A DNA stretch of 15,670 nt from a virus (lineage: Duplodnaviria; Heunggongvirae; Uroviricota; Caudoviricetes), in IMG/VR virus record IMGVR_UViG_2778261161_000003, positions 1 through 15,670 of that record. One strand, written 5' to 3'. The notes beneath the pieces are model-generated. The model was not told the DNA's origin, ran no database searches, and saw only the letters and a program-made list of their open reading frames with translations. Positions 660-15,670 of this stretch are shown piece after piece (the stretch's first letter is position 1; every line of letters begins with the position of its first letter). The translations under genes were made by a program, and so were the position numbers.

Positions 660-920
660 TCAGTTCCGGGGGAGGGGTAGGTTCATCTGACTGCAACCTC
701 TGTGCGAAGCTGGCAGGTCATGCCAGGGGATGCCCTCCGAAGAGTGAACGCCAGAGGCGTGTTTCGATGTGAATTTATGGAAAGCTTCCAGTGTTGAGAA
801 GCATACGCCGCATTCCAGGTTGTTACACTGGTAATATTTTTGCCGCACGGTATTCGAATCATTTTCCGGGCGACTGGTGCGGATACGGGCAGATGCGCCA
901 CAAAGCGGACAACGGAACAT
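660..920 (-). CDS. ogr: Ogr/Delta-family zinc-finger late-gene transcription activator
   Basis: MFRCPLCGASARIRTSR...QCNNLECGVCF matches the P2 Ogr C-x2-C...C-x4-C zinc-finger layout and N-terminal MFxCPLC signature. SD GGGAGG 5 nt upstream of ATG (920-918). The ORF is 86 aa against 72 aa for P2 Ogr. Confidence 0.85.
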   Translation of the reverse strand: MFRCPLCGASARIRTSRPENDSNTVRQKYYQCNNLECGVCFSTLEAFHKFTSKHASGVHSSEGIPWHDLPASHRGCSQMNLPLPRN

Positions 921-1164
921 AGCGACCTCCCTTTGCGTGGTGCTGCCGCTATTTTAAGTTGTACTAGCTCAGACTCCAACCGACAGTTTGCGTAGCCAGA
1001 ACGCAATCAAACCTGGCAATCCGCTTTGAACTCGCAGCGACAAGCGTGCGTTCTCACATAAATGAAGATTATTGGCTTTTTACCATATGTGGGAGTGGTG
1101 CTTTTGTTAGTAAAAGGTGATGATAGGTTTTTTCCTATGCACACCCATTGGTTAGTCAAGAGAA

Positions 1165-3132
1165 ATGACAGAATTTGAGATAAATAGCCCACTACTTCAT
1201 CTCGCTTTGCTTGAAACACTGAAGCGTGACGACATTCATGATGAGATAGATTTGTTTCTTCCGTTTATTGCTGTAACAGCCTCCGAAATTGGCAAGCCTG
1301 TTATTAATGAAAATGATATACAGGATAAACTTCAGCAAAACTTCGGGTTCAAGCCGCCACTGGCAGCAGTGAAGGTATTGATGACGCGAGCCAAGAAAAG
1401 AGGCCTTCTAATCCGTGAAAATTTCGCCTTTATTCCAGTGCACGAAAAAATAACTGAATGGAAAAATGGATTTGAGCATAAAAAAGAAGATGTAGAAACA
1501 TCTCTTGCAAGTCTCAAGCGTGAATTTATCATTTTTACAGAAGTCAACTTTGGTAAAAAACTATCTGATTCTGAAGCTGAAAAGTTAATTATCGGATTTA
1601 TTGAGGTTAACGTTAGTAGTGTGATAAGTCATAGGGCTTATCATCGAATGGAACAAGCAGAACGTATTAAAAATACTAATCATGTTATTGCATCTTTTAT
1701 TAGTCATATTCACCGAAACCAACCAAGAATTTTAGAAGATTTCAGTCGATGTGTAAAAGGTATGTTACTGGCTAACTATCTCTTTTATGCAGATAAGGCC
1801 ACAGATAAAAAATCTTATAAGGGAATAACAGTTTACCTTGACTCTCCTATAGTCATTGGCATGCTTGGATATAGTGGACGCCAAGCAAAAGAGGCATATA
1901 CAGATTTTTTAAATCTTCTAAAATCACTAAGTATTGAGATAGTCATATTTGACCGTACACTTAATGAAATTGAAGGTTTACTATATGCATGGAAAAATGA
2001 TATTTCGAAGAAACGTTATGACCGTTTCAATACGAAGACACTTGAGTGGTTAAGGGCGCAAGGTTATGATGCTGAGCGTATTGATACTGACCTTAAGCTA
2101 CTTGAAAGTAATATCAATAAGCTTGATATCAATATTAAACTTGGTTTTACTCCGAAAACAAAGTTTCAATGCGATGAAGCTAAACTCCAGAGTGCTATTG
2201 GTCGGGCTTTTCACAGAGACAAAAATCTTGAGCACGATACTATTTGCATTTCCCGCATACATAATATGCGGGAAGGTAGAGTGATCAATAATCTTAGCCA
2301 GTCTTTTAGTGTTTTTGTTACGCCTAATACTAGCCTCGTCAAGGAAGCTAATGATTTTTTCCGTCATGATACTAAGCGCCAAGCTATTCCAGTCGTCGTT
2401 TCTGAACAGTGGATGACGGCTATGTTCTGGCTAAAAAAGCCAGATATTTATGCTCAACTACCTCAAGAGCAGCTTCTTTCAACGGCCTACAGTTTATTGT
2501 ACACCGACGATCGATTCTGGGAAGCTTTCATAAATCGTCTCGAAAATCTTGAAAAACGAGGAGATATTACTCAGGATGAGTTTCTTCAGATCCGCTGGGA
2601 TAGTGATCTTCTTCGGCTTGTGCATGATGTATCTGTCGATGTGGGAGAGGATTTTTCCGAGGAAGATGTTTTTGACGTGGTTAACACAATCAAGCGAAGG
2701 CATGAGGAAAAACATCAGAGTGATATGGCAGAGCTAGAAGACCGTGGCCGACAGGAACTAGAGAGTTTGCGTCAAAAAACATCCACACAACTTCAGACGA
2801 TTAATCTGGAAAAACAAGCTGCGCAGGCAAGAATTGAATCTTTAGAGCGAAAAATACGCAAGGGTAGTGCCTTTCTAGCTGGCGCTTTAGCTTGGTTTTT
2901 TAGTGGATTGCTGGTCTTTTCTCTTTGTCTGGCTGCTGTCAAAGGAATTCCCGATGAAATGCAGCCCGCTATGTTTAGAAGTGACTTATTCAGAGGAAAT
3001 CTGGTAGGTGTTAGCATAATTGTTACTTCATTATTTGGAGTGCTCAGTAGTGTTACAGGAATTGATTTAGCCATTTGTCATAAATTCATAAAATCACGTA
3101 TTGAAAAATGGTTTTTTTCATTATTTAGTTGA
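1165..3132 (+). CDS. Hypothetical 655-aa protein: large soluble N-terminal region, coiled coil, two C-terminal transmembrane helices; AT-rich cargo gene
   Basis: Long uninterrupted ORF in a visibly AT-rich segment. Heptad-like charged region at about aa 520-570 (ELEDRGRQELESLRQ...IESLERKIRK), then hydrophobic helices AFLAGALAWFFSGLLVFSLCLAAV and LVGVSIIVTSLFGVLSSVTGIDLAI. No Walker A or other catalytic motif recognised. Start ATG 1165 has only a weak SD. Confidence 0.7.
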   Translation: MTEFEINSPLLHLALLETLKRDDIHDEIDLFLPFIAVTASEIGKPVINENDIQDKLQQNFGFKPPLAAVKVLMTRAKKRGLLIRENFAFIPVHEKITEWKNGFEHKKEDVETSLASLKREFIIFTEVNFGKKLSDSEAEKLIIGFIEVNVSSVISHRAYHRMEQAERIKNTNHVIASFISHIHRNQPRILEDFSRCVKGMLLANYLFYADKATDKKSYKGITVYLDSPIVIGMLGYSGRQAKEAYTDFLNLLKSLSIEIVIFDRTLNEIEGLLYAWKNDISKKRYDRFNTKTLEWLRAQGYDAERIDTDLKLLESNINKLDINIKLGFTPKTKFQCDEAKLQSAIGRAFHRDKNLEHDTICISRIHNMREGRVINNLSQSFSVFVTPNTSLVKEANDFFRHDTKRQAIPVVVSEQWMTAMFWLKKPDIYAQLPQEQLLSTAYSLLYTDDRFWEAFINRLENLEKRGDITQDEFLQIRWDSDLLRLVHDVSVDVGEDFSEEDVFDVVNTIKRRHEEKHQSDMAELEDRGRQELESLRQKTSTQLQTINLEKQAAQARIESLERKIRKGSAFLAGALAWFFSGLLVFSLCLAAVKGIPDEMQPAMFRSDLFRGNLVGVSIIVTSLFGVLSSVTGIDLAICHKFIKSRIEKWFFSLFS

Positions 3133-3144
3133 CTTTTACTAAAG

Positions 3145-3180
3145 GAGAAATGCGGTTAATAATTTTGAACCGCATTTCTC
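3145..3180. repeat. Perfect 13-bp inverted repeat forming a stem-loop just after the 655-aa ORF
   Basis: GAGAAATGCGGTT (3145-3157), 10-nt loop, AACCGCATTTCTC (3168-3180). No U-tract on either strand, so it is not a canonical intrinsic terminator. Confidence 0.45.
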
Positions 3181-3314
3181 TGGGCTGTTATCTGATATAA
3201 TTAGTATCCATATCTAGTACAGATGAGGCTGTTAGAAGTGTCAAAACAACCTACGGTGGATAGAATTGACTGTGTGTCCAACGTTGAGAGGGATAATGTA
3301 ATAAAGCATTATCA

Positions 3315-3680
3315 GTGCACAATAGACATCTAGGGGGAACCTTGGCTAAGGTGACCAGAATTCAGGCCGGGCAATATGCAGTAGATGATGGGCGTTTCAT
3401 CGTAAAAAATAGCTCAGGATGGCTCGTTGTTGATGTTAATGGCACCCATGATTTTGGGCCTGTTCCAACGCTAGCAGCAGCGAAACAATATGTTGAGTCT
3501 GGCGCGGTTCCGTTAGGGCAACATAATTTGTCTACAGTACATGGCCGCAGACAAAGCAAAAAAGAGTTTAATGCATATCTGGCATCTGAAGCTAAGAATG
3601 GTAATCCAATGCCAGCTATTCTTTGGATCATTGTTCTTTGTATCATCGGTGGTGTTGTCTTGGCTGTGAGAGGTTATTAG
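3315..3680 (+). CDS. Hypothetical small protein (about 109-121 aa) with a C-terminal transmembrane anchor
   Basis: ORF ends in hydrophobic segment AILWIIVLCIIGGVVLAVRGY. Start ambiguous: ATG 3315 or in-frame GTG 3351 downstream of AGGGGGAA. Same strand as the 655-aa gene. Confidence 0.45.
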   Translation: MHNRHLGGTLAKVTRIQAGQYAVDDGRFIVKNSSGWLVVDVNGTHDFGPVPTLAAAKQYVESGAVPLGQHNLSTVHGRRQSKKEFNAYLASEAKNGNPMPAILWIIVLCIIGGVVLAVRGY

Positions 3681-3830
3681 CTTTGGATAGATTAGCTGAT
3701 TTTCTACTCACGGATTGATGCGGATAGCTATTATCTATGTCCGCTTTCTAGCGCAGAGCGGATTGTCAGATTAGGTGGACCTGTGCCGTAAACGTGTCAG
3801 CTTTGGTCTGAGCTAATGCATCCAAGTTGT

Positions 3831-4940
3831 TCACTCTGTTTCTGCTATCCATTCAGGGATTTTTGTCTCAAGCTCAAGCCGCGTGGTAAACCCACTGTCA
3901 TCAATGGTGTGCTCGGCTTTTGCAATAATCCAGTTCTGTTTATCAATGTCGCTTTTGAATCCTGTCACCGTGCCATGCATTTCGGGGTAGAGTTCTGCGC
4001 GTCCACGCGCCAGCGTGATGGAAAAAGATGCGGCCCCGCGTTGTAGCTGCTGCCACTTTGCCGCCGCTGCGCGTCTTGCTGCCTGTTCATTCTGGTAGGT
4101 TTTGCGTAACACAAATACGTTGCCTTCCGCTCCTTCCATATAATCGCCTTCGCGGCTGCTGCTTTGCTCCTTTTTCGGTTTTGGCGGTTTGCGGCGTTTC
4201 ACGCTGACTTTTTTCTTTTTCCCGTAGTTAAGATCAAGCCAGTAGGCGCGTACACCCGTATACGCCTCGCGGTCAGCAATTCGGAACTGATGGCGATCGC
4301 CGCTGCTGCGTGTGATGGTGAACGATGGCAGCGGCTGGCCCTGTGCGTTCACGCCACCGCCTGGCATGATGAATAACAGATTTCCGCTTTTTACCGTGGT
4401 GATTGCGCCCAGCATTTCCGCCATGCGCGTAAGGAAGGACATGTCGCTTTCTTCGGTCTGGTCGGCGTGGTCGATTTCGATATCCATCAGCATTTCGCTG
4501 ATTTGTGGTTTCAGGCCGTACCGGTGAGCAATGGCAGACACCACGCGCTCAACGGTCACATCATGCCAGGACACTTCACGCTTAACGTTAAATTCATCCC
4601 GAAAATCTGCGCTTCTGGCTGAAACAGTCAGCGTGTCCGGTGGCCCTTCGTGAGCGATTTCATCAACAATGTAAGTGCCTTTTTCGGTCAGTGGTTCTCC
4701 TTTCCAGCCAATGAGAACCGTCAGGTGAGCGCCCCGTGGCGGTAGCTGCAACTGGCCATCGGCATCATCCAGCGTGATGGTTAGCTGGTCAGCTTCAAAT
4801 CCTCTGTTGTCGGTCAGCGACAGACTCATCAGGCGCTCTGCCACGCCGGACAGCGCTTTACCTTCCGCAAGAATATCAAAATCCGGCATTTTCACGGGGT
4901 CTGCGCGCTGACTGAGTAATTGCATGGTGGTATCGGTCAT
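3831..4940 (-). CDS. D: Phage tail protein D (P2 late control gene D family)
   Basis: Translation from MTDTTMQLLSQRADPVKMPDFDILAEGKALSG onward has the overall layout of P2 gpD-family tail proteins, including the lysine-rich linker KKKKVSVKRRKPPKPKK. Start chosen at ATG 4940-4938 because of SD GGGAGG 6 nt upstream; the track ORF extends to 5072 but that N-terminal extension lacks an SD. Confidence 0.85.
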   Translation of the reverse strand: MTDTTMQLLSQRADPVKMPDFDILAEGKALSGVAERLMSLSLTDNRGFEADQLTITLDDADGQLQLPPRGAHLTVLIGWKGEPLTEKGTYIVDEIAHEGPPDTLTVSARSADFRDEFNVKREVSWHDVTVERVVSAIAHRYGLKPQISEMLMDIEIDHADQTEESDMSFLTRMAEMLGAITTVKSGNLLFIMPGGGVNAQGQPLPSFTITRSSGDRHQFRIADREAYTGVRAYWLDLNYGKKKKVSVKRRKPPKPKKEQSSSREGDYMEGAEGNVFVLRKTYQNEQAARRAAAAKWQQLQRGAASFSITLARGRAELYPEMHGTVTGFKSDIDKQNWIIAKAEHTIDDSGFTTRLELETKIPEWIAETE

Positions 4941-5097
4941 CTGCTCCCTCCCTGCGTGGCATAGTCGCATGTGCGTGCGGCGGGGGTTACTGCTTTTTGT
5001 TGTCGTCGGGCGGGGAGAACAGCGCAAGAGTGAGATTGTGCGCGTGGTGGGTGATGATTGTTGCCGAATCATTTAACGGATACAAGGGGCTGAAGCT

Positions 5098-6282
5098 ATG
5101 AGTGAAACTCGTTTTCATGGTGCCCGTGTTACGGAAAGTACCGACCTGGTAACAGCGATTAATGACGTTGATTCCAGTGTTATTGGTATCGTGGCAACGG
5201 CGGATGATGCGGACGCAAAGCAGTTCCCGCTGAACAAGCCCACGTTGCTGACCCGCGTCAATGACGTGCTGGGAAAATGCGGGACTACGGGGACGCTTTA
5301 TCGTGCGCTTAAGGCCATCGCAGACCAGGTGAGCACAAAAGTGATCGTCGTTCGCGTGGCTGAACACAAAGAAGAAGACGGTAAGACGCAGGATCAACTG
5401 GTTATCGGTGGTTCTGAATCTGACGGCAGCTATACAGGGATGTATGCGCTGCTTGTTGCAGAGCAGGATGAAAGTATCGGATACCGTCCGCGTATTCTGG
5501 CTGCGCCGGAGCTGGACACGGAGGCGGTAACAAAATCCCTGTGCGTGATTGCAGGTAAACTGCGCGCGTTTGTGTATGCCTCATGTCACGGCTGTAACAC
5601 GATGGCTGAGGCGATTACCTACCGCCAGAAATTCAACGAACGTGAGGTGATGCTCTTATGGCCGGACTTCATCGCCTACAACCCGAAAAGTGGCAAAAAC
5701 GAAACGTTCCCCGCGCCTGCCTATGCGTGCGGCCTTCGTGCGTACATTGACCATGAGCAGGGCTGGCACAAATCACTGTCCAACGTTCCGGTTAAAAATG
5801 TGCTGGGGATGTCGAGGCATGTGTTCTGGTCGTTGCAGGCCGAAGACAGTGATGCCAACAGCCTCAACAACAAAGAAATCACGACCATTATTCGTCGCAA
5901 CGGGTTCCGCTTCTGGGGCAACCGCACACCGGAAACGAACGCCTACATCTTTGAGGTGTATACCCGAACCGCACAGGTGCTGGCTGATTCAATTGCGGAA
6001 GCGCAGTTTGAAACCATCGACAGTCCACTGACGCCTGCGAACGTGAAGGATGTTATCAGTGCCATCAGGGCAAAACTGGATTCACTGGTTACTGCCGGGA
6101 AACTGATTGGCGCGGAGTGCTGGTATGACGTGGTGGATAACAGCACCACGGATTTACGTCAGGGGCGTGTGCGTATTCGCTACAAATATACGCCTGTTCC
6201 GCCACTGGAAGACATGGAGCTTTACCAGACGTTTACTGATGAATACTTTGAACCTGCATTTGCGGTGCTGGGAGGTGCCTGA
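5098..6282 (+). CDS. FI: Contractile tail sheath protein (P2 FI-like)
   Basis: 394 aa, collinear with P2 FI (e.g. WPDF, EQGWHK.LSNV, RRNGFRFWGNRT, YKYTPVPPLE). SD AAGGGG 8 nt upstream of ATG 5098. Confidence 0.9.
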   Translation: MSETRFHGARVTESTDLVTAINDVDSSVIGIVATADDADAKQFPLNKPTLLTRVNDVLGKCGTTGTLYRALKAIADQVSTKVIVVRVAEHKEEDGKTQDQLVIGGSESDGSYTGMYALLVAEQDESIGYRPRILAAPELDTEAVTKSLCVIAGKLRAFVYASCHGCNTMAEAITYRQKFNEREVMLLWPDFIAYNPKSGKNETFPAPAYACGLRAYIDHEQGWHKSLSNVPVKNVLGMSRHVFWSLQAEDSDANSLNNKEITTIIRRNGFRFWGNRTPETNAYIFEVYTRTAQVLADSIAEAQFETIDSPLTPANVKDVISAIRAKLDSLVTAGKLIGAECWYDVVDNSTTDLRQGRVRIRYKYTPVPPLEDMELYQTFTDEYFEPAFAVLGGA

Positions 6283-6794
6283 TGGCTGTGCCAAAACATC
6301 TTCGCTTTTTCACGCTGTTTGTGGATGGTGAAAACGAAGTGGGGAAGGTGACGTCCGTCACTCTGCCTAAACTGACGCGTAAAATAGACAGCTATCGTGG
6401 TGGTGGCATGATGGGGGCGGTGAGTATCGATCTCGGTCTGGATGATTCGGCTCTTGATGCGAGCTTTGTCATGGGCGGCGCGGTTCGTGAACTGTTCCTT
6501 AAGTATGGCGGCACGATTGACGGCACGCTGCTGCGCTTTGCAGGTGAATACTACACCGATGCAGAAAGCGACCTGTATGAAGTCGAAATGCGCGGACGTG
6601 TGACGGAAATTGATATGGGGGAAGCCAAACAGGGCGAAGCCACATCACACACTTACGCCATTAAAAACACCTACTACAAGCTGAGTGTTAACGATCGCCC
6701 GTTGTGGGAGATTGACCTGCTGAACTTCATTTACCGGAAGGACGGCAAGGACATTGTGCCCGATCGCATCCGTTCCGCGCTCGGGCTTGGCTGA
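6282..6794 (+). CDS. FII: Tail tube protein (P2 FII-like)
   Basis: 170 aa; MAVPKHLRFFTLFVDGENEVGKVTSVTLPKLTRKIDSYRGGGM matches the P2 FII N-terminus pattern. ATG overlaps the FI stop (TGATG), SD GGGAGGTG upstream. Confidence 0.9.
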   Translation: MAVPKHLRFFTLFVDGENEVGKVTSVTLPKLTRKIDSYRGGGMMGAVSIDLGLDDSALDASFVMGGAVRELFLKYGGTIDGTLLRFAGEYYTDAESDLYEVEMRGRVTEIDMGEAKQGEATSHTYAIKNTYYKLSVNDRPLWEIDLLNFIYRKDGKDIVPDRIRSALGLG

Positions 6795-6849
6795 TAAGTA
6801 ATATGCAGGCGGCGCAGTGCGTTGCCTCTGACTGAAAAGGAGACAACTG

Positions 6850-7224
6850 ATGAAAGACATCGATACTGAAACCCGGAATAACACCGTAGCGGATGATGTG
6901 ACGGCAGGTGAGGATATGGCTGTCGAACGTGGTGTAAAACTTTCCCGGCCAATTGAGCGTGGTGCCGAAAAAATCACATATGTGGAAATCACCGGGGCTA
7001 TTGAGCAGGCGGGATCCCTGCGTGGTCTGTCGCTGTCTGATGTGCTGAATCTGAAAGCGGATACCATGTTCACGCTGTTGCCTCGCGTGACCTCGCCACG
7101 ACTGGATGAAGTGATGATTAAAAAAATGTCGTCACGCGATTTTATTCAGTTGTGCGCTGTGGCTGTAAATTTTATGAGCGAGCCAGACTCTGGCGCGAAG
7201 AGCGTGCAGGAGACGGCAGCGTAA
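6850..7224 (+). CDS. E: Tail assembly chaperone E (zero-frame product)
   Basis: 124-aa ORF between the tube and tape-measure genes, the conserved position of gpE in P2-like tails; SD AAAGGAGA upstream of ATG 6850. Confidence 0.8.
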   Translation: MKDIDTETRNNTVADDVTAGEDMAVERGVKLSRPIERGAEKITYVEITGAIEQAGSLRGLSLSDVLNLKADTMFTLLPRVTSPRLDEVMIKKMSSRDFIQLCAVAVNFMSEPDSGAKSVQETAA

Positions 7225-7388
7225 TCACCCTGGTGTGCTTTGAGCACATCGAAGATCTGGTGGCGGATATTGCCGCCATTTTTAACTGGTCGCCCGCCGA
7301 AATCTTCATGATGACGCCCGGCGAAGTGGTTAGCTGGCGTGAGCGGGCGGCACTTCGCAGCGGGAATGCAGACAATGAAGACTCTTGA
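6850..7388 (+). CDS. E': E+E' fusion predicted from a programmed -1 translational frameshift
   Basis: The -1 frame relative to E is open from 7122 to TGA 7386-7388, overlapping the 3' end of E and running up to the tape-measure start. Same logic as P2 E/E' and lambda G/GT. The exact shift site is inferred. Confidence 0.55.
7167..7173 (+). promoter_or_regulatory. Candidate -1 slippery heptamer A AAT TTT
   Basis: Fits X XXY YYZ in the E zero frame (codons AAT 7168-7170, TTT 7171-7173), inside the E/E' overlap. An A7 run at 7120-7126 is an alternative but re-pairs less well. Confidence 0.4.
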
Positions 7389-10182
7389 TATCCGGGTCGC
7401 TTTCAGCGCCGTTGACAGGCTGACCCGGCCTGCCGAAAACGCCCTCCGCCTGATGGGGCAGTTTGGTGACTCCATCCAGCGAACGCAGGGGGCGATCAAA
7501 AATCTCGAGCGTCAGGCGCGATCATTCGAGCGCGCCCGCGACGCTGTCAGTAAAGCGGATGCGGGCATCGTGAAAGCACGACGCCAGCTTAACGCCCTTA
7601 ATCAGTTACAACGCACGGGTACAGTGCTCAGCGAAAAACAACAAAAGCTGATGCAGCAGTTAAGCACCCGGCTTGAACGCCTGAATGAATCGCGCACACG
7701 GGAAATTCAGAAAATGCGGGAGCTTGGCGGAGAGCTGAAACGCCACGGCATTTCCCTGACAGGCAGCGATAACACCATCCAGCAGGCCATCAGACGCACC
7801 GAACAGTACAACAACCAGCTTGAACGCGAACGGCAGGCGCTTGCGCGTGTAACGCGGGCGCGTGAGCGGTATTCGCGCGCGCAGGAAACCGCGGGAAAAC
7901 TGAAAACAGGTGGTGCACTGGCAACAGGTGCGGCAGCGGCGGGCGGCTATGCTGCCGGGCGTTTTTTGCAGCCCGCGATTGGGTTCGGGAAAGAGATGTC
8001 CCGCGTTCAGGCTCTGACGCGAATCGACAAAAACAGCCCGCAGTTTAAGGCGCTGCGTGAGCAGACGTTAAAACTTGGCTCTGAAACGCAGTTCACTGCA
8101 GGCGATGCCGCCAGTGGGCAGGCATTTCTTGCAATGGCTGGCTTCACACCGCAGGCCATTCAGGCTGCGCTTCCCGGCGTGCTGAGCATGGCAACGGCTG
8201 GCGGTATGGATCTCGGCGAGACGGCGGATATTGGCTCAAATATCCTGACGCAGTTCGGCCTTTCTGCTGACCAGATGGACCGGGTCGGTGACACACTCAC
8301 CGCAGCGTTTACCCGTACCAACACTGACCTTCGCGCACTGGGCGAAACCATGAAATATGCAGGTCCGGTAGCGGGTAAGCTGGGAATATCGCTGGAGCAG
8401 GCCGCAGCGATGGCTGGCGTGTTGGCGAATATGGGTATCAGAGGGAGTGATGCTGGGACGGCAATGCGTGCCAGCCTGGCTCGTCTGGCATCACCGCCAA
8501 AGGCGGCAGCAGAGGCGCTGAAAGAGCTTGGTGTGGCTGTTTCTGACGCGAACGGCAAAATGCGCCCGATGGAGGATGTGCTGGCCGACCTTTATAAAGC
8601 CACCCGCAAATACGGGGAAGTTGACCGGGTATCGTTCTTTAAGGACATTGCCGGAGAAGAGGCTTTCACATCATTTATGGCCCTCGTTGATGCGGCAGGT
8701 GACGGCTCCCTGCCCAAACTGAGAAAAGAACTTGAAGGCGCGCGCGGTGAGGCTGAACGCACGGCAAAGGTTATGGCCAACAACCTTGACGGCGATCTGA
8801 AATCACTCAGCAGTGCATGGGAAGGGTTGCGCATCCGCATTGCAGATCTGATTGACGGTCCGCTGCGTTCTGTTACGCAGTGGCTCACGCGAGTGGTCTC
8901 AAAGGTGACGGCGCTGGCGCAGGCCCATCCCGCACTGACGCGCCAGCTACTGATAGCAGGCGGTGCGTTGCTGGCAATGACTGCAACGGTTGGCTCGTTG
9001 TCGCTGGCTATTGGTGTGCTTGCTGGCCCGCTGGCAAAACTGCGTCTTGGTTTTTCTCTCCTGACCGGATCAATGAATGCTGTCAGGGTCCTGCCAGCAC
9101 TATGGGGAATGGTGACGGGTTCCGTTTCTTTACTGGGAGGCGCTATCGGGGCGTTGTTCAGTCCGGTTGGTCTTATCGTGGCTGCGCTTGCCGGAGCTGC
9201 CGTTCTTATCTGGAAATACTGGGATCCCATCAGGGCATTTTTTGCCGGGGTGTTCAGCGGGATTATGGAAAGGCTGACCCCGTTGCGCGAAACCTTTGAA
9301 CGGTTTGGTCCTGTTTTTGACGCAATCGGAAGCGGGATCAGCCAGGTGTTTAACTGGTTTAAATCGCTGCTGTCACCGATGGAGTCCAGCAAGGAAACGC
9401 TGGATAAATGTACCAGTGCTGGCGAGATATTCGGTAACGTTCTTGGCGGTGCGTTACAACTTGTTCTGACACCTGCAAAAATGCTACTGGATACGCTGGC
9501 GTGGATACTTGAAAAACTTGGCGTCCTTCCGGATGAAGCGGAAAGGGCGCGCAAGAAAATCGAAGACGCACAGCGTGCGGCCATTCTTCAGGACAAGGTT
9601 GCCTTGCTTCAGGGGGACCTGGCGAAAATCAATCCGCCGAAGCCTGTGGAAAATGGCAATGGCACCGGAGGTGATAAACCCAAAGACAACAAACCGCTCA
9701 CAGACAGCAATACCGGGACGCTACGCAGACTCAGCAAAATTGCTGATAACACAGGTAAGCTGGTTGATGAGACGAAAAAACGCATTGGCCCCGGCGATAT
9801 TGTCTTTAAGAACCTGCCCCGAGCACTTGCTGTTCGTGGGGAGTGGCAGGAGCGGAAGATTGCGCAGGTCAGTAAGCCTGCCCCCGCAATTAATATCACA
9901 CCTGTGGTTCCGGCTCCGCTGCCTCCGGCGCTGGTCCCTGTTGTTGCGGCCAGCTCCCGCCCGGTGGCAGAGGCCATACGATCGCCAGTGGCATCAGTTC
10001 CTGCAACTTCCCGTAACCGGGAGCCTGTTGCCTCCGGATTTGGCGGTGAAATTCATGTTCATCTGCATAACGTTGTTACGCAGAATCCCCGCGAACTGGC
10101 GAAACTGGTCGGTGAAATGGTCAGGGCAGAAATGGAACGGCGCGCCCGTGCCGGGCGTGGAAGTTTTTACGATAAAGATTGA
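7375..10182 (+). CDS. T: Tail tape measure protein (P2 gpT-like)
   Basis: About 935 aa, alpha-helical N-terminal region, Gly/Ala-rich hydrophobic central segment, Pro-rich C-terminal region; position after E/E'. Start set at ATG 7375 (GGGAA 8 nt upstream); in-frame alternatives at 7366 and 7339. Confidence 0.88.
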   Translation: MKTLDIRVAFSAVDRLTRPAENALRLMGQFGDSIQRTQGAIKNLERQARSFERARDAVSKADAGIVKARRQLNALNQLQRTGTVLSEKQQKLMQQLSTRLERLNESRTREIQKMRELGGELKRHGISLTGSDNTIQQAIRRTEQYNNQLERERQALARVTRARERYSRAQETAGKLKTGGALATGAAAAGGYAAGRFLQPAIGFGKEMSRVQALTRIDKNSPQFKALREQTLKLGSETQFTAGDAASGQAFLAMAGFTPQAIQAALPGVLSMATAGGMDLGETADIGSNILTQFGLSADQMDRVGDTLTAAFTRTNTDLRALGETMKYAGPVAGKLGISLEQAAAMAGVLANMGIRGSDAGTAMRASLARLASPPKAAAEALKELGVAVSDANGKMRPMEDVLADLYKATRKYGEVDRVSFFKDIAGEEAFTSFMALVDAAGDGSLPKLRKELEGARGEAERTAKVMANNLDGDLKSLSSAWEGLRIRIADLIDGPLRSVTQWLTRVVSKVTALAQAHPALTRQLLIAGGALLAMTATVGSLSLAIGVLAGPLAKLRLGFSLLTGSMNAVRVLPALWGMVTGSVSLLGGAIGALFSPVGLIVAALAGAAVLIWKYWDPIRAFFAGVFSGIMERLTPLRETFERFGPVFDAIGSGISQVFNWFKSLLSPMESSKETLDKCTSAGEIFGNVLGGALQLVLTPAKMLLDTLAWILEKLGVLPDEAERARKKIEDAQRAAILQDKVALLQGDLAKINPPKPVENGNGTGGDKPKDNKPLTDSNTGTLRRLSKIADNTGKLVDETKKRIGPGDIVFKNLPRALAVRGEWQERKIAQVSKPAPAINITPVVPAPLPPALVPVVAASSRPVAEAIRSPVASVPATSRNREPVASGFGGEIHVHLHNVVTQNPRELAKLVGEMVRAEMERRARAGRGSFYDKD

Positions 10183-10194
10183 GGAGTCATGGCC

Positions 10195-10683
10195 ATGATG
10201 ATGATCTACGGCATGTTTGTTTTTGAGCTGCGCACGCTGCCGCATCAGCAGTTACAGCAAAACAAAAGCTGGCGGCATGTGAAAAATGAACGCGTTAACC
10301 GTTCAGCAAGCTGGCAGTATATCGGTGCAGGTGATGATCGCATCGTGCTTTCTGGTGTGCTTTATCCTGAAATTACAGGTGGCGAAGTGTCGCTGTCGCT
10401 GCTGACCACGCAGGCGTATACAGGACGACCCTGGCCTTTGATTGATGGTGTCGGGCAGATTTACGGCATGTATGTCCTGACCGGAACGAATACGACCCGT
10501 TCCGAGTTTGATCGCTACGGTAAGGCGAAAAAGATAGAATTTTCACTGACCCTTGAACGCTGTGATGAGGATTTGCGGGAGCGCCTGCAATCCTCATCGT
10601 TCAGCGATATGCTGTCCGGCTTCAAAGATAAGGTGACATCATCTCTTAACAGCGCGGCCAGTTCAGTTAAAGGACTGTTCTGA
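10195..10683 (+). CDS. U: Tail protein U (P2 gpU-like)
   Basis: MAMMMIYGMFVFELRTLPHQQLQ, GAGDDRIVLSGVLYPEITGG and WPLIDGVGQIYGMYVLTG resemble P2 gpU. SD GAGGAG (10181-10186) is 8 nt before ATG 10195; ATG 10189 is an in-frame alternative. Confidence 0.88.
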   Translation: MMMIYGMFVFELRTLPHQQLQQNKSWRHVKNERVNRSASWQYIGAGDDRIVLSGVLYPEITGGEVSLSLLTTQAYTGRPWPLIDGVGQIYGMYVLTGTNTTRSEFDRYGKAKKIEFSLTLERCDEDLRERLQSSSFSDMLSGFKDKVTSSLNSAASSVKGLF

Positions 10684-10779: not shown

Positions 10780-12018
10780 TTATAAAGAATTGCTACTTTC
10801 TAATTCTGGGTTTCTGGAACTATTTTTACAACCTAAATCCGAGTGGTAATTCGGTATATCGTTTGTCAAATCTTGTTTGATAGCATTAATTAAGATCATT
10901 ATGTCGAATTTATGCATATCGTCGCCCCCTTCAGACCTTAGATGTTCGGATGTGGTGAGTTGAGTCGCTAATTTGCTGTTTGGCCCCCACACAATATTAT
11001 TTTCGAATTTTCCTTCATGCATTCTGTTATTATATATACAGTATTGTCTAATGTTTAATGCACTGGCTAAATGTACAATGGCAGTATCTACAGTTATAAC
11101 AAAATCAGCATGGCGAACCAATGCAAATGAACATCCGGCATCAGAAAATGGAGATAGAGACACATTATCCAATCCATTGTGATTAATCTGTTTTCCCATA
11201 TTAAAAACTATTGTGTGATATCCCTTAAGGTTATTAAGGTAAGCTAGTACTTTTTTTATCTGTTCATCAGATAAGGTTCTGCTATTCTGAGAGCCATAAG
11301 GGTTAAATATAACTAATTTTTTGTTTTTTTTTCTGAATTCATTTGCAACAATATTTGCTGGTTCATATATTTTGTTGTCAAAATTAAGCGCTGCAGCATA
11401 ATTATTATTTTTTATCTTTAGTAAAGATAAAACTTTTTTCATTCTTTCAGATGTGTGAATGGAACGATTATCGATTATATTTGTATCAAAAATAGTTACG
11501 GCAGGATGATTAAAACAGATAGAGTGTTTAGGTCTAAGTAAATGTAGTGTTTGCAATCTGGTTATCGCTGTGTTATCAAAATTTGAGAAGTCAACAACAA
11601 GATCTACATTCAGTTTTTTTATCTTTGCTTTTAGTTCGTTAAATTTATTTTTCTCGTAAGATATAAAGGCATCCACGCCAACAATGTCAGTAAAGAGGAA
11701 TGATACTCTTGAAGGTGCTATCACATATACCACCATACCGGATTTTTGAAGTTGTTTAATAAACCCTGAGGTAACGATGCCGTCACCAATGGCTTGCATG
11801 TGCATGAAAATGCACACTGTTTTATAACTATCCGGCTGTAATGATGTTTTCCTTCTGTATCGCATTTTTAGAAATGCCAGTCTGGCCTTCGTCTTTATCT
11901 TTTTTGTTTTAATATTTCGCTGTCTGTTAAGCTGTTTTAACGATGAAATAACATTCATAATGGTACCCTGAAATTCCAAATCACACATGTCATCCGTAAT
12001 GAGCAGGGTACTATACAA
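10780..12018 (-). CDS. GT-B-fold glycosyltransferase, family 9 (heptosyltransferase-like) with N- and C-terminal extensions; AT-rich cargo gene
   Basis: N-terminal KTVCIFMHMQAIGDGIVTSGFIKQL resembles the GT9 motif (ILIIRLSSLGDV type). C-terminal FALVRHADFVITVDTAIVHLASALNIRQYCIY resembles the GT9 nucleotide-sugar-binding motif (GNDSG.MHLAAAL type). Start uncertain: TTG 12018, ATG 11988 or ATG 11958, all with weak SD. Confidence 0.65.
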   Translation of the reverse strand: MYSTLLITDDMCDLEFQGTIMNVISSLKQLNRQRNIKTKKIKTKARLAFLKMRYRRKTSLQPDSYKTVCIFMHMQAIGDGIVTSGFIKQLQKSGMVVYVIAPSRVSFLFTDIVGVDAFISYEKNKFNELKAKIKKLNVDLVVDFSNFDNTAITRLQTLHLLRPKHSICFNHPAVTIFDTNIIDNRSIHTSERMKKVLSLLKIKNNNYAAALNFDNKIYEPANIVANEFRKKNKKLVIFNPYGSQNSRTLSDEQIKKVLAYLNNLKGYHTIVFNMGKQINHNGLDNVSLSPFSDAGCSFALVRHADFVITVDTAIVHLASALNIRQYCIYNNRMHEGKFENNIVWGPNSKLATQLTTSEHLRSEGGDDMHKFDIMILINAIKQDLTNDIPNYHSDLGCKNSSRNPELESSNSL

Positions 12019-12052: not shown

Positions 12053-12652
12053 TTATGCTTGTTTACTCCTTGATTCCACTGGGGAAGCTGGCCACTCAAT
12101 ATCCGGTGCTCTTGATGTATCAACACGGTTCAGCAGCACTCGATACTTCTTCCATGCCACCAGTAACGATGTTTCTTCCTCTGTTGCAATATTCAAATCT
12201 ACGGCATCTTGAAGTGGCGAAATATGCTCACTGGCTACCTGCATGAGGCTGTTTTTTGTTTCTTCCGCCTCCCGTATCCGGAACACTTTTTCTGCTTCCG
12301 TATCCTTCACCCAGGCTATGCCGTTCCACTTCTGATATTCCCCTTCCGGCGACAACCAGGTGACATTTTCCGGTAACGGACCGAGTTCAGAAATAAATAA
12401 CGCGTCGCCGGAAGCCACGTCATAAACCGTTTTACCACGATGATCTTCAACGAGATGCCAGGACGCCCCATCACTGTTGAAAACAGCCACGAAGCCAGCT
12501 GGAATATCTGGCGGAGCAATATCAGTACTATTTGCAGGCAGACCTGTATGAGGTGGAATGTATGCATCACCTTCACCAATAAATTCATTGGTTCCGACCA
12601 GCAGATTATAAATTTTTATGGTCCGTGATTGTTCACTCATTCTGAATGTCAT
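12053..12652 (-). CDS. tfa: Tail fibre assembly chaperone (lambda Tfa / P2 gpG family)
   Basis: [51 protein letters not shown] and C-terminal [36 protein letters not shown] match lambdoid Tfa proteins closely. Start ATG overlaps the fibre stop (TAATG). Confidence 0.9.
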
Positions 12653-13734
12653 TATGCAAGCCTCACAATATAGTTAAATGCGATGTTTTTTACGGTGTTT
12701 TCTGCGTTCCCCGTAGCATTAACGGTGATGGTGTGTCCGTGGGGACCAATAATGACAGAATGGGCATGAGCACCAATGCCGATAGTGTGGTTATGGGCAC
12801 CGATATATACATTGTGAGCATGCCCTCCTGCGCTCGACGTGGTACCAGTACCTAACGCAGCGTTATAACCGGCTGATACACCATTCCCCGCGCCAGTGTG
12901 ACCAACAGGTATATTGTGTGAATGAGCTCCTGCGCTATTTGTGGTTTTTGTGCCGTAATCAAATGAACTGGTCGTTTTAGTACCGTAATCAAACGACGAT
13001 GTGGTTTTCGTCCCCAAATCAGTACTGGATGCGCTGGCGCTGTGGGTGTGCGATTTAATGCCGTCCTGTTCCTGAGACAATACGGCACGACCACTGGCAG
13101 GTTTGCCCTTGATAGTCCAGCCACGCATATCAGGGATCACGCCTGACGGATAAGCGACTGCAAGTTTCGGGTATGCAGATTTGTCAAAAGTCTGCCCCTG
13201 CATCAGGGCATAACCAGACGGAACGGTATCTGATGGCCACGGAATCGGTGCACCGACTGGATAAAACTCTTCAGGAGGATGAGCCGAGGTGTAAAGCTGC
13301 GCCCACGGCGACCAGTTTGCGTCGGTCGTATCCCGTCGTGAACGAATAAATGCCGGAGCATGAGCACCGCTTATACCACTCCAGCCGATGAGTAATTCGC
13401 CTTCGCCAACGGCTGTCATCCCTTTCAGGTGAATGATATTTCCATACGCTGTTGGATATCCGTTGTTATACGCCTCGTATAACTCCAGACCTGTGGCCCC
13501 CTGCATATTATCTGTCAGGGCGGTCAGCCGACCTTTTGAAGCCAGATTAACTGACGATACTGCTGTCCCATCTGACGGTAACGCCCCGATCTCTGATGCT
13601 GTTGGCTTATTCCTGGAGTTATAGTCCCTTCGCCAGCCAGGAGCATAAGCATCACCATGATTAATATAAGTAAATTGAGCATTAGGGATGCCTTCACCGC
13701 TGGATGTACTCGGTGTGGTAATGCGTATGGTCAT
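12652..13734 (-). CDS. Short tail fibre protein (360 aa) with tail-collar-like region and His-rich C-terminal tip
   Basis: [34 protein letters not shown]...IPDMRGW resembles the phage tail-collar domain. Followed by [10 protein letters not shown] tandem repeats and GAHxH/GHxH repeats typical of fibre tips. Much shorter than P2 gpH (669 aa). Confidence 0.8.
12936..13025 (-). repeat. Intragenic tandem repeat, about 3 x 30 bp, in the tail fibre gene
   Basis: CCGTAATCAAA recurs at 12953-12963 and 12983-12993 with a degenerate third copy at about 13012-13022; encodes [10 protein letters not shown] / [10 protein letters not shown] / [10 protein letters not shown]. Confidence 0.6.
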
Positions 13735-14289: not shown

Positions 14290-15264
14290 ATGAGCATAAA
14301 ATCAATTCCGGGAGGGTATCTTCTTGACATGCGCCCGGAGGGGCGTAAAGGCAAACGCATTCGTAAAAAATTTAAAACGAAATCGGATGCAGTTTTATAT
14401 GAGCGGTGGGTGCTGGCGCAACAGCATAACAATGAGTGGAAAGGAAACTCCATTGATCGCCGTCCGCTGTCAGTGCTTATTGACTTGTGGTGGAAATACC
14501 ACGGCCAGCTAATGAAGTCAGGGCATAACACGCGCCTTAAATTGCTGCGCTTGAGTGAGGCAATGGATGACCCGTGCGTGCATAAACTTAATACAACGAT
14601 GCTCACCGAGCTACGTGTGTCCAGGATAGAGCAGGGGATACAGCCCAGCACCATAAATCGAGAGATTGGGGCGTTAAGCGCGATGTTTACCGCACTCATC
14701 TCATCCGGCCATTTTCTTAACGATAACCCCGTTCAAGGCCTTAAAGGAATGAAGGTTAACGAGCGCGAAATGGGATATCTGAGTAAGTCTGAATGTGTTC
14801 AGTTGCTGGATGCACTGGCTGAAAATCCCGATGAACGGCTGGCTGTCGAAATCCTTCTGTCGACCGGGGCGCGATGGGGCGAGGTAGCGGCACTGGAGCA
14901 GCGCCGTGTTCTTCATTGTCGAATCACTTTTTCAAAAACGAAGAACAGCAAAAACCGTACCGTTCCTATTTCTGAAAGCCTGTTTGAAAAGATCAAAATA
15001 CGGGGCGGGAAACTGGTGTTTCCGACGCTGGATTATCCATTGGTTCGCGATGTCATCAAAACGGTCGCACCTGATGTTCCTGACGGCCAGGCTGTTCATG
15101 CGCTGCGCCACACCTTCGCCAGTCATTTCATGATGAACGGCGGCAATATTCTGACGCTCCAGAAAATTCTGGGGCACGCAAAGATTCAGACAACGATGAT
15201 TTATGCCCATCTTGCGCCGGATTACTTGCAGGATGCGGTGAGATTTAATCCTATTGCTGGGTAA
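14290..15264 (+). CDS. int: Tyrosine recombinase, P2 Int family
   Basis: MSIKSIPGGYLLDMRPEGRKGKRIRKKFKTKSDA N-terminus and catalytic motifs LSTGARWGEVAAL, HALRHTFASHFMMNGG, LGHAKIQTTMIYAHL are collinear with P2 integrase. Start placed at ATG 14290; the track ORF begins upstream at 14140. Confidence 0.9.
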   Translation: MSIKSIPGGYLLDMRPEGRKGKRIRKKFKTKSDAVLYERWVLAQQHNNEWKGNSIDRRPLSVLIDLWWKYHGQLMKSGHNTRLKLLRLSEAMDDPCVHKLNTTMLTELRVSRIEQGIQPSTINREIGALSAMFTALISSGHFLNDNPVQGLKGMKVNEREMGYLSKSECVQLLDALAENPDERLAVEILLSTGARWGEVAALEQRRVLHCRITFSKTKNSKNRTVPISESLFEKIKIRGGKLVFPTLDYPLVRDVIKTVAPDVPDGQAVHALRHTFASHFMMNGGNILTLQKILGHAKIQTTMIYAHLAPDYLQDAVRFNPIAG

Positions 15265-15274
15265 GGAGGATGTT

Positions 15275-15670
15275 GTGGAAAAAACAGTTAATAGCGATTT
15301 GCATTTAGGTCAGTACTGGAGAATAGACATTGTATGCGATCCAGAACTTCGAGATGAGGTTGAGCAATATTTTTCTCTACACGATGTTGGTTTTAGCAAA
15401 ATTGAAGTTTTTTCCGTCGAAAATCCATATAAACTTGCTCTGTTCTTTGATTTCGCGAAGAAGGGTGTGGAGGTTGCAAAAGCCATTATGGGACTCTTAG
15501 ACCGAAATGATATTGAAATAACGATGTATCGTGCTACGGACAGTAGCCCGCAGTCTGTAAAAAGCATCAAATTGCGTAAGTCTGAAGACGTAGAGAAATG
15601 TAAAGATTTGCTTAGTACGTGTGTTGCAATTGGCGTTCAACGAAATAAGGAAAAAGAGGGGAGTGAATGA
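15275..15670 (+). CDS. Hypothetical 131-aa protein, AT-rich; predicted GTG start directly after the int stop
   Basis: SD AAGGAGGA (15263-15270) overlapping the int stop, GTG at 15275 in frame with track ORF 15254-15670. No family recognised. Confidence 0.45.
   Translation: MEKTVNSDLHLGQYWRIDIVCDPELRDEVEQYFSLHDVGFSKIEVFSVENPYKLALFFDFAKKGVEVAKAIMGLLDRNDIEITMYRATDSSPQSVKSIKLRKSEDVEKCKDLLSTCVAIGVQRNKEKEGSE

Follow-up and report, generated by a model that had tools for sequence, protein, structure and literature searches.

What occupies the interval between ogr and gene D in this P2-like prophage, and does it encode an anti-phage system? A reading of the sequence alone had taken D and ogr to be adjacent in P2 and had described between them about 2.7 kb of AT-rich DNA on the opposite strand, with two genes proposed to form an undescribed anti-phage module.

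Variable cargo between ogr and D

Three features define the interval in the window, which is the whole 15,670-nucleotide stretch of DNA that was analyzed.

660..920, minus strand: ogr, left flank of the slot (Pfam Ogr_Delta 5.5e-14)
~1030..3737: variable cargo cassette between ogr and D, ~2.7 kb, 39% G+C (blastn breakpoints, G+C, other cargo in the same slot)
3831..4940, minus strand: gene D, right flank of the slot (Pfam Phage_GPD 6.7e-16; RefSeq CDS)

The ogr gene directly adjoins D in the P2-type prophage L004. Among the 44 sampled E. coli places that held both flanks, the slot was empty in 26 and held differing cargo in 18, as expected of variable cargo rather than P2-like core content. 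Comparison by blastn with eight other E. coli copies of the same prophage lineage (L015, L016, and L024-L029) placed the homology breakpoints at ~967-1029 and ~3737-3826, which set the size of the cassette at ~2.7 kb. The G+C content was 39.0% for 1030-3737, compared to 51% for the left flank and 55% from D to U, and the cassette ORFs are on the plus strand, while the flanking ogr and D are both on the minus strand. The adjacency in P2, the AT-rich insert on the opposite strand, its foreign composition, and its prophage location were thus as the sequence-only reading had described them, and the region is foreign, variable cargo in the prophage. The divergent FI-U operon was also considered as a local inversion, which was ruled out because the arrangement is common to the whole E. 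coli lineage.

The P2 cargo loci fun/Z and old/tin resemble the ogr-D cassette in that variable, AT-rich cargo of one gene lies between late genes that are conserved, but the copy of the 655-aa gene found here is in the ogr-D interval. Besides the 655-aa gene, two other occupants of the slot were predicted defense genes. The ogr-D interval was reported as a hotspot by neither Rousset 2022 nor Vassallo 2022, and no such report was found in a wider literature search. If the 655-aa gene is defensive, this interval would be a further site at which to search P2-like prophages for defense genes.

The hairpin and the small membrane protein

The cassette contains the 655-aa ORF, a perfect 13-bp hairpin, and an ORF for a small membrane protein.

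3145..3180, plus strand: perfect 13-bp inverted repeat with a 10-nt loop, a terminator-like hairpin without a T run
3342..3680, plus strand: small membrane protein, tail-anchored, most likely 112 aa from a TTG start, and by sequence comparison an independent cargo gene (homologues 112 aa)

The arms of the inverted repeat, which had been correctly placed between the two ORFs, are GAGAAATGCGGTT (3145-3157) and AACCGCATTTCTC (3168-3180), and the repeat starts 13 nt past the stop codon of the 655-aa gene. The terminator scan made no call at 3145-3180. The small ORF is an open frame from 3315 to 3680 on the plus strand and had been read as a 121-aa protein ending in a transmembrane helix. The terminal hydrophobic segment was found (residues ~96-121 in the 121-aa numbering), but the length was not retained: the protein is most likely 112 aa, starting at the TTG at 3342 (MAKVTRIQ...), because eleven homologues begin there and 112 aa is the typical length of the family.

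The two ORFs share a strand and are 180-210 bp apart in the window, an arrangement that would suit one two-gene system. However, the hairpin lies between them, and the small protein was beside none of the 655-aa relatives at nine other loci searched by tblastn or in the further contexts examined. Members of the small family were instead found alone in a P2 old/tin hotspot in Serratia, in a Vibrio cassette array, and on an E. albertii plasmid. A single system made up of both genes is barely credible on this evidence, and the two-gene module was abandoned. As judged from these comparisons, the small ORF is an independent cassette belonging to a family separate from that of the 655-aa protein.

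Architecture and conservation of the 655-aa protein

1165..3132, plus strand: gene for the 655-aa protein (WP_096936374.1), with predicted winged helix, PIN domain, coiled coil, and two-helix membrane hairpin (ORF; RefSeq CDS)
1165..1464, plus strand: predicted N-terminal winged-helix domain, residues ~1-100
1807..2400, plus strand: predicted VapC-like PIN domain, residues ~215-412, with a ~70-residue helical insert at 282-355
PIN motif residues: D226, E268, D358, T386-x-N388, and E414
2659..2859, plus strand: coiled-coil stalk, residues ~499-565, within one predicted helix 499-593 (AF2 model; 28% mean pairwise identity)
2860..3084, plus strand: two-helix membrane hairpin, residues ~566-640, with basic residues on both cytoplasmic sides (hydropathy; 62 of 63 relatives)

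Hydropathy analysis identified two C-terminal hydrophobic segments at ~567-596 and ~608-638, preceded in the AF2 model by the single predicted helix 499-593, in agreement with the coiled coil and two C-terminal transmembrane helices that had been described. The large N-terminal region, on the other hand, had been said to hold no recognizable motif, and a winged helix and a VapC-like PIN domain are predicted there. The pTM of the full-length model was 0.44, so the packing of the domains is uncertain.

The family includes 136 close clusters and about 3,800 distant ones (50% identity), and it has no curated domain model and no name. Mean pairwise identity was 51-62% in the soluble part, 28% in the coiled coil, and 24% in the hairpin; conservation of the soluble part but not of the stalk and hairpin is consistent with an enzyme core carried by a generic anchor. 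The hairpin itself was kept in 62 of the 63 relatives, and G632 was nearly invariant in an alignment of 160 proteins. Truncated or split copies were common, which would fit a costly or toxic gene but would also fit simple decay.

The 655-aa query had no match in Pfam or NCBIfam and no significant match in PADLOC-DB 2.0, and searches of Pfam, NCBIfam, PADLOC, and PHROGs returned nothing usable either for the query or for ten distant relatives, among which the sole PADLOC match was a weak one to LmuC (P0239, E = 0.0028). A PADLOC oMTase match to the query (E = 0.0068) was rejected because it was far below the curated cutoff and covered a short stretch, as were matches to alpha-xenorhabdolysin and LysR, and matches to PPE41 and phosphofructokinase in the PDB sequence-profile search (E > 0.01) were judged to be chance. 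No consensus promoter was found upstream of the gene by the promoter scan, and a pattern scan with narrow patterns found no relatives in IMG/VR viral contigs.

A predicted PIN nuclease fold

In the predicted structure, the conserved and presumably catalytic part of the 655-aa protein is a PIN nuclease fold: a three-layer alpha/beta/alpha arrangement with a parallel beta-sheet that can be superposed on VapC. Conservation was evaluated in 160 proteins with a median identity of 22% to the 655-aa query. D226, E268, D358, and R369 were present in all 160, as was T or S at position 386, and N388 was present in 155. The motifs D-[ST], E, D-x-x-I-x-[AS], and T-x-N-T resemble those of the enteric tRNA-fMet VapC. 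No conserved acid was found at the VapC offset of the fourth acid, for which D337/E338 or E/D414 are candidates. N388 was ruled out as a degenerate fourth acid because the genuine tRNA-fMet VapC also has T-N-N-T at this point. At the sequence level there was no PIN match at the curated threshold in Pfam, NCBIfam, or PDB profile searches; Pfam PIN_3 matches were weak and came from 6 of 63 members (best E = 0.026), and hhalign found nothing when the domain alignment was compared with that of an enteric VapC (probability 0.1).

The predicted PIN domain differs from VapC in its 70-residue insert and in being joined to a winged helix, stalk, and membrane anchor. Unlike vapC in VapBC, the 655-aa gene has no adjacent antitoxin gene: only an unconserved 38-aa ORF is upstream, and the homologues stand alone. 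This ORF was ruled out as an antitoxin or leader, as it is unconserved beyond the Cronobacter copy.

Killing could instead be the work of the membrane hairpin, in line with the sensor-plus-membrane-effector layout of the sequence-only reading. On activation the protein would oligomerize and depolarize or permeabilize the inner membrane, while the winged-helix and PIN-like region would only sense phage nucleic acid or protein. Retention of the hairpin despite its low identity and the nearly invariant G632 are consistent with such an effector, as are weak holin-like and DUF2207_C matches in a few members, and there is no obvious equivalent of the fourth acid of classical PIN domains. Membrane effectors have an established place in defense (Rousset 2022), and in Ronin a 61-aa transmembrane toxin, RonA, is restrained by HsdMS. 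However, invariance of the three PIN acids and R369 at 22% overall identity is expected of a working active site and not of a binding platform, the hairpin and stalk evolve faster than any other part of the protein, and no cyclase or other signal generator is encoded nearby. A membrane effector is a possible explanation that we consider unlikely.

The layout had also been compared to the 2TM effectors of CBASS, which likewise have a soluble domain followed by C-terminal transmembrane helices and occur in a defense-type context. Membership in CBASS did not hold up: there was no CD-NTase cyclase gene in the window or at homologous loci, no SAVED or other nucleotide-sensing domain, and no PADLOC CBASS match. 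The N-terminal part, unlike that of these effectors, is predicted to be a winged helix and a nuclease fold, and the membrane hairpin is the least conserved part.

Genomic contexts and candidacy for defense

A relative with 63% identity was found alone in the P2 fun hotspot, a locus that is enriched in defense genes (Vassallo 2022, PMC9519451). Of nineteen sampled contexts of the gene, seven placed it inside a type I R-M operon, with hsdS on one side, hsdR on the other, and codons that abutted or overlapped. These seven were from Aeromonas, Pseudoalteromonas, Acinetobacter, Salinibius, Shewanella, Oceanospirillum, and an Aeromonadaceae MAG, and the embedded relatives were 46-49% identical to the 655-aa protein. 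Two further copies adjoined type I genes. The other ten contexts had no type I genes in the flanks read; among them were the two copies in P2-like prophages of E. coli and those on a plasmid, on an ICE, and on an integrase island. In this window no R-M gene is alongside the 655-aa gene. One relative adjoins a YobI/Tmn-like ATPase.

The combination of a widespread, membrane-tethered protein that has a predicted VapC-like fold with occurrence inside restriction-enzyme operons makes the 655-aa gene a strong new anti-phage candidate. The candidacy put forward by the sequence-only reading therefore stands, with the fun hotspot, the R-M operons, the YobI-like ATPase, and DefensePredictor all in its favor, but the word undescribed is only partly true. 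The exact protein is already predicted as defensive by DefensePredictor (Science 2026), with a log-odds of 8.91 against a cutoff of 4, in Table S10, which lists 1,041 predicted E. coli defense clusters and gives this one without annotation. It is absent from the tested set of 94 units (Table S6), and none of the validated DS proteins has a transmembrane segment near residues 570-640. No mention of its accession numbers was found in the main texts of the literature. The comparison presented here would provide the family with a fold, with candidate residues for catalysis, and with a role open to test. It also shows that comparing folds can give an annotation to proteins that are picked out, but not accounted for, by a language-model predictor.

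The gene may not be defensive at all. It could act selfishly, as an addiction or toxin gene, or encode a membrane protein of some other use to the mobile element, such as conjugation exclusion or prophage maintenance. Relatives occur in many types of mobile element (plasmid, ICE, integrase island), with hok/gef beside the gene here and VapBC in Cronobacter, and the frequent pseudogenization suggests toxicity. Against this are the repeated placement in slots of validated defense genes, the co-transcription with restriction enzymes, the high DefensePredictor score, and the lack of a cognate antitoxin gene, which make a non-defensive role very unlikely.

Proposed mode of action and relation to type I restriction

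The explanation that we favor, and to which we give an even chance, is that the 655-aa gene is a self-contained, single-protein defense of the abortive-infection type with a latent, membrane-tethered PIN nuclease. It would be a horizontally mobile anti-phage or anti-MGE gene. The analysis itself established the predicted fold, the conserved residues, the membrane hairpin, and the genomic contexts, from which we infer a nuclease activity, its latency, a trigger, and a defense phenotype. The C-terminal hairpin would anchor the protein in the inner membrane with both ends in the cytoplasm, the coiled-coil stalk would probably give a dimer or higher oligomer, and the cytoplasmic part would consist of the N-terminal winged helix, a helical region, and the VapC-like PIN nuclease. 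This nuclease would be the effector, and either the N-terminal region or the oligomeric state would keep it silent, much like an antitoxin fused to its toxin, until infection releases it to cut RNA (tRNA, rRNA, or mRNA), which would stop translation and abort the infection. DS-3, a validated DefensePredictor system, is likewise a single-protein PIN ribonuclease without an antitoxin that is proposed to be auto-inhibited, but it has 340 aa and its PIN is split. DS-5 is also a validated PIN-based defense, and the source paper's list of proteins with transmembrane segments includes neither of the two. If the 655-aa protein is defensive, a VapC-type nuclease fixed to the membrane would be an architecture unseen among characterized systems.

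In many bacteria the relatives share a transcript with the genes of a type I restriction enzyme and take the position that PrrC has, so interference with restriction is one likely trigger. The gene travels by itself in P2-like prophages of E. coli, and so must also be able to function with no R-M partner of its own. PrrC, to which RloC is related, is embedded in the EcoprrI type Ic R-M locus (PMC12707154), just as the relatives from seven genera are in the hsdS-hsdR slot. PrrC is a latent RNase, and its counterpart here has a PIN fold and is a predicted nuclease. PrrC is soluble and has an ABC-ATPase-like N-domain and another nuclease domain, whereas the 655-aa protein has no Walker A motif and combines the PIN fold with a membrane hairpin. 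If defensive, it would join PrrC as a second natural case in which an RNase is built into type I restriction operons.

A stricter version makes the protein an obligate accessory or guard of type I R-M, similar to PrrC or Ronin, which binds HsdMS/R, is silenced by it, and in a prophage uses the enzyme of the host. The seven codon-coupled placements between hsdS and hsdR, the two adjacent ones, and the precedents of PrrC and Ronin would agree with this. The ten contexts that lack type I genes within the flanks read would not, and the low identity of the embedded copies indicates that the coupling may be lineage-specific. We consider improbable an obligate guard of this type, which would fire when anti-restriction proteins such as Ocr, ArdA, or Stp disable the type I enzyme.

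A more far-reaching proposal, which we hold to be doubtful, makes the family a novel type of guardian of restriction, a membrane-tethered PIN RNase, in which case the ogr-D interval would be a third and as yet unreported defense hotspot of P2-like prophages. The RNase would be silenced by contact with type I HsdMS/R, which in prophages would be the enzyme of the host, and freed by phage anti-restriction proteins, so that one polypeptide would join the role of PrrC (RNase) to that of Ronin (membrane toxin). Ronin (RonA plus an HsdMS decoy) is similar in that a membrane-active effector is tied to type I R-M subunits and is triggered by anti-restriction proteins. RonA, however, is a peptide without an enzyme domain, whereas the 655-aa protein has the predicted PIN domain, and Ronin lacks hsdR, whereas the embedded 655-aa relatives are in complete hsdMSR operons.

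The AT-rich cassette between ogr and D

The window is a degraded P2-like prophage between ihfA and btuC on an E. coli chromosome. What survives is a remnant, with a truncated H and no capsid, lysis, or replication genes.

Features of the window in gene order (position, strand, feature)
330-470, minus, Hok/Gef-family toxin gene (hok/gef)
660-920, minus, ogr
1165-3132, plus, gene for the 655-aa protein
3342-3680, plus, gene for the small protein (counterparts in the compared loci L040/L041, L042, and L011-L014, each at 6001-6339)
3831-4940, minus, D
after D, plus, FI-FII-E-E'-T-U
10780-11958, minus, GT9 glycosyltransferase gene
after the GT9 gene, minus, G and truncated H
end of the gene order, HTH gene, then integrase

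Two ORFs lie where the sequence-only reading had placed them, with ogr and D on the other strand. The AT-richness that had been noted by eye was borne out by calculation: positions 1030-3737 are 39.0% G+C, versus 51% in the left flank and 55% from D to U. Comparison by blastn with eight other copies of the prophage lineage placed the edges of the foreign DNA at ~967-1029 and ~3737-3826, which gives a cassette of 2.7 kb, as had been estimated. Positions 1000-3830 were 100% identical to strain MEI7BO1-21, the only carrier among 5,426 complete E. coli genomes.

The perfect 13-bp inverted repeat reported between the two genes is present (3145-3157 / 3168-3180); it begins 13 nt past the stop codon of the 655-aa gene, with no T run after it. 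A 38-aa ORF (1062-1178, plus strand) overlaps the start of the same gene. In the Cronobacter copy the peptide is similar in part, and some of the differences are synonymous; the ORF was interrupted in Pectobacterium and absent elsewhere, and it is probably a co-mobilised 5' region and not a gene.

Fold and conserved residues of the 655-aa protein

The 655-aa protein had no matching model in Pfam, NCBIfam, PADLOC, or PHROG. Its 136 close clusters are all 640-670 aa, and every one is named 'hypothetical'. An exhaustive profile search at E ≤ 1e-3 yielded 3,836 representative clusters, of which 1,662 reached E ≤ 1e-30, with most matches spanning the full length. For ten distant representatives, Pfam gave nothing above its curated threshold and PADLOC a single weak match (LmuC, E = 0.0028).

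Foldseek agreed on two domains, a winged helix and a VapC-like PIN. C-terminal to the PIN are a helical region, a single predicted helix (499-593), and a pair of hydrophobic helices (~567-596 and ~608-638). The membrane hairpin that these form has basic residues on either side, which implies that both ends of the protein are cytoplasmic.

D226, E268, D358, R369, and T/S386 were invariant among 160 full-length relatives, whose median identity to the query is 22%; N388 was present in 155 of them. The conserved residues lie past strands 1 and 4 and at the start of two helices, one following strand 2 and the other preceding strand 4; read against the secondary structure, D226, E268, D358, and T386-N388 appear to occupy PIN signature positions. 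N388 was considered as a degenerate acid and rejected, because a genuine enteric tRNA-fMet VapC likewise carries T-N-N-T after strand 4, making N388 a normal VapC residue. That VapC has its classical fourth acid five residues beyond the Thr, a position with no conserved counterpart in the 655-aa family; D337/E338 or E/D414 might fill this role.

Mean pairwise identity was 51-62% in the soluble part, 28% in the stalk, and 24% in the hairpin, which was nevertheless retained in 62 of 63 relatives. The main rival to a nuclease effector is that the hairpin kills and the PIN-like part serves only as a sensor. That the PIN residues are invariant and the hairpin evolves fast argues against this rival, which is the less probable of the two.

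Split or shortened copies were common in databases: 283-460 aa in E. coli, 354 + 299 aa in Aeromonas salmonicida, and 283 + 405 aa in Pseudomonas sp. Kh13. Their frequency suggests recurrent inactivation.

Genomic contexts and a proposed role in defence

Nineteen distinct contexts of the family were examined. In an otherwise P2-type prophage, a 63%-identical E. coli relative lies alone between G and FI, that is, in the fun locus, the second defence-enriched locus of P2-like phages (Vassallo et al., PMC9519451). In seven contexts a relative (X) is part of a type I restriction-modification operon ordered hsdM-hsdS-X-hsdR-YgjP. Three of these loci were gene-called (Aeromonas, Pseudoalteromonas, and Acinetobacter), and where X meets hsdR in them the start and stop codons touch or overlap; the other four (Salinibius, Shewanella, Oceanospirillum, and an Aeromonadaceae MAG) were placed by tblastn. 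The Acinetobacter operon contains two embedded accessory genes, with a NucS/YhcG-like 313-aa gene between hsdS and the family member (L020-L022, 6034-6975 / 4195-5133). Two further copies adjoin type I genes. The remaining sites include one beside a YobI/Tmn-like ATPase, Tmn being a described defence (PMC13001434), a plasmid (where VapBC is the neighbour), an ICE, and an integrase island.

A location within a type I locus is shared with PrrC, a latent tRNA nuclease that is released when phage T4 Stp inhibits EcoprrI (PMC12707154). A second precedent is Ronin, in which HsdMS holds back a small membrane toxin.

The exact protein, WP_096936374.1, is entered in Table S10 of DefensePredictor (Science 2026, PMC13092281), an inventory of 1,041 E. 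coli clusters whose proteins are uncharacterised and predicted to act in defence. Its mean log-odds is 8.91 (range 7.95-9.91) against a strict cutoff of 4. It was without HHblits or Foldseek links to known defences and was outside the 94 units that those authors tested; a C-terminal membrane segment in a comparable place is absent from all of their validated proteins.

What goes beyond fold, residues, topology, and context in this family we infer. The best-supported reading is that the 655-aa protein may be a single-protein defence, tethered to the membrane and probably oligomeric, in which a putative VapC-like nuclease would be held latent and released on infection. In many lineages the gene is wired into a type I restriction operon, where its product may guard against anti-restriction, and in E. 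coli prophages the protein would be autonomous.

The small protein

The downstream product had been given as 121 aa, nine codons too long: its homologues are 112 aa and begin MAKVTRIQ, corresponding to a TTG at 3342. It is tail-anchored; in its family the juxtamembrane motif is GRRQSKKEFNAYLASEAKNGN and the sequence ends in VRGY. Identity within the family is 56-95% over a range that takes in E. coli, Moritella, and Bowmanella. The gene also occurs by itself: a Serratia P2-like prophage has it in the old/tin hotspot, Vibrio metoecus in an integron-like cassette array, and E. albertii on a 36-kb plasmid, where a DpnII/MboI-like gene lies next to it. By tblastn it was found beside the large gene at none of nine other large-gene loci. 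The proposed two-gene module does not hold, and the small protein is a member of a family that is very conserved and moves independently.

Variable cargo in the ogr-D slot

The ogr-D flanks were matched in ~1,460 E. coli genomes. Sampling these at even spacing gave 44 places with both flanks: ogr and D were adjacent in 26 and separated by cargo in 18. The cargo varied by strain, with at least eight other types: a SEC-C/YecA protein, a ComF-type PRTase with a hypothetical protein, DUF3800, DUF2971, and ParA-family proteins, an alpha/beta hydrolase, a different 500-aa PIN-domain protein, and other hypothetical proteins.

Cargo between ogr and D in other E. coli copies of the lineage (locus, position; either strand)
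L024, 825-2327
L025, 811-1980
L026, 734-1519
L027, 838-1896
L028, 892-1650
L029, 730-1752
L016, 10001-11140
L015, 10030-11177

The DUF2971 protein matches the PADLOC candidate PDC-S31, and the DUF2971 and SEC-C proteins are DefensePredictor predictions (log-odds 8.69 and 7.06). The interval was not described as a hotspot in Rousset 2022 or Vassallo 2022, nor in any other paper of the literature searched; P2-like prophages may have here a third hotspot that has gone unreported.

Other features of the prophage

The Hok/Gef-family toxin gene, which adjoins ogr at the prophage end, was kept in every lineage copy examined. Within 3831-10683, FI-FII-E-E'-T-U is divergent from D; in the P2-type prophage L004 all are co-directional. 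A local inversion was ruled out, as the arrangement is lineage-wide (L015, L016). H (12652-13734, minus strand) is ~930-960 bp longer than in the only complete-genome match (L001, 31653-31790), so the window comes from a different strain. The GT9-family gene is 33% G+C and lies between U and G, a position equivalent to P2 Z/fun. Its product matched PHROG 36326 strongly (3.4e-241) and Pfam Glyco_transf_9 weakly; the gene is a second AT-rich cargo gene, possibly an LPS-modifying moron. Downstream of the integrase, an AT-rich ORF (15254-15670, plus strand) that continues past the window end matched PHROG 14142 (unknown function, 8.6e-70).
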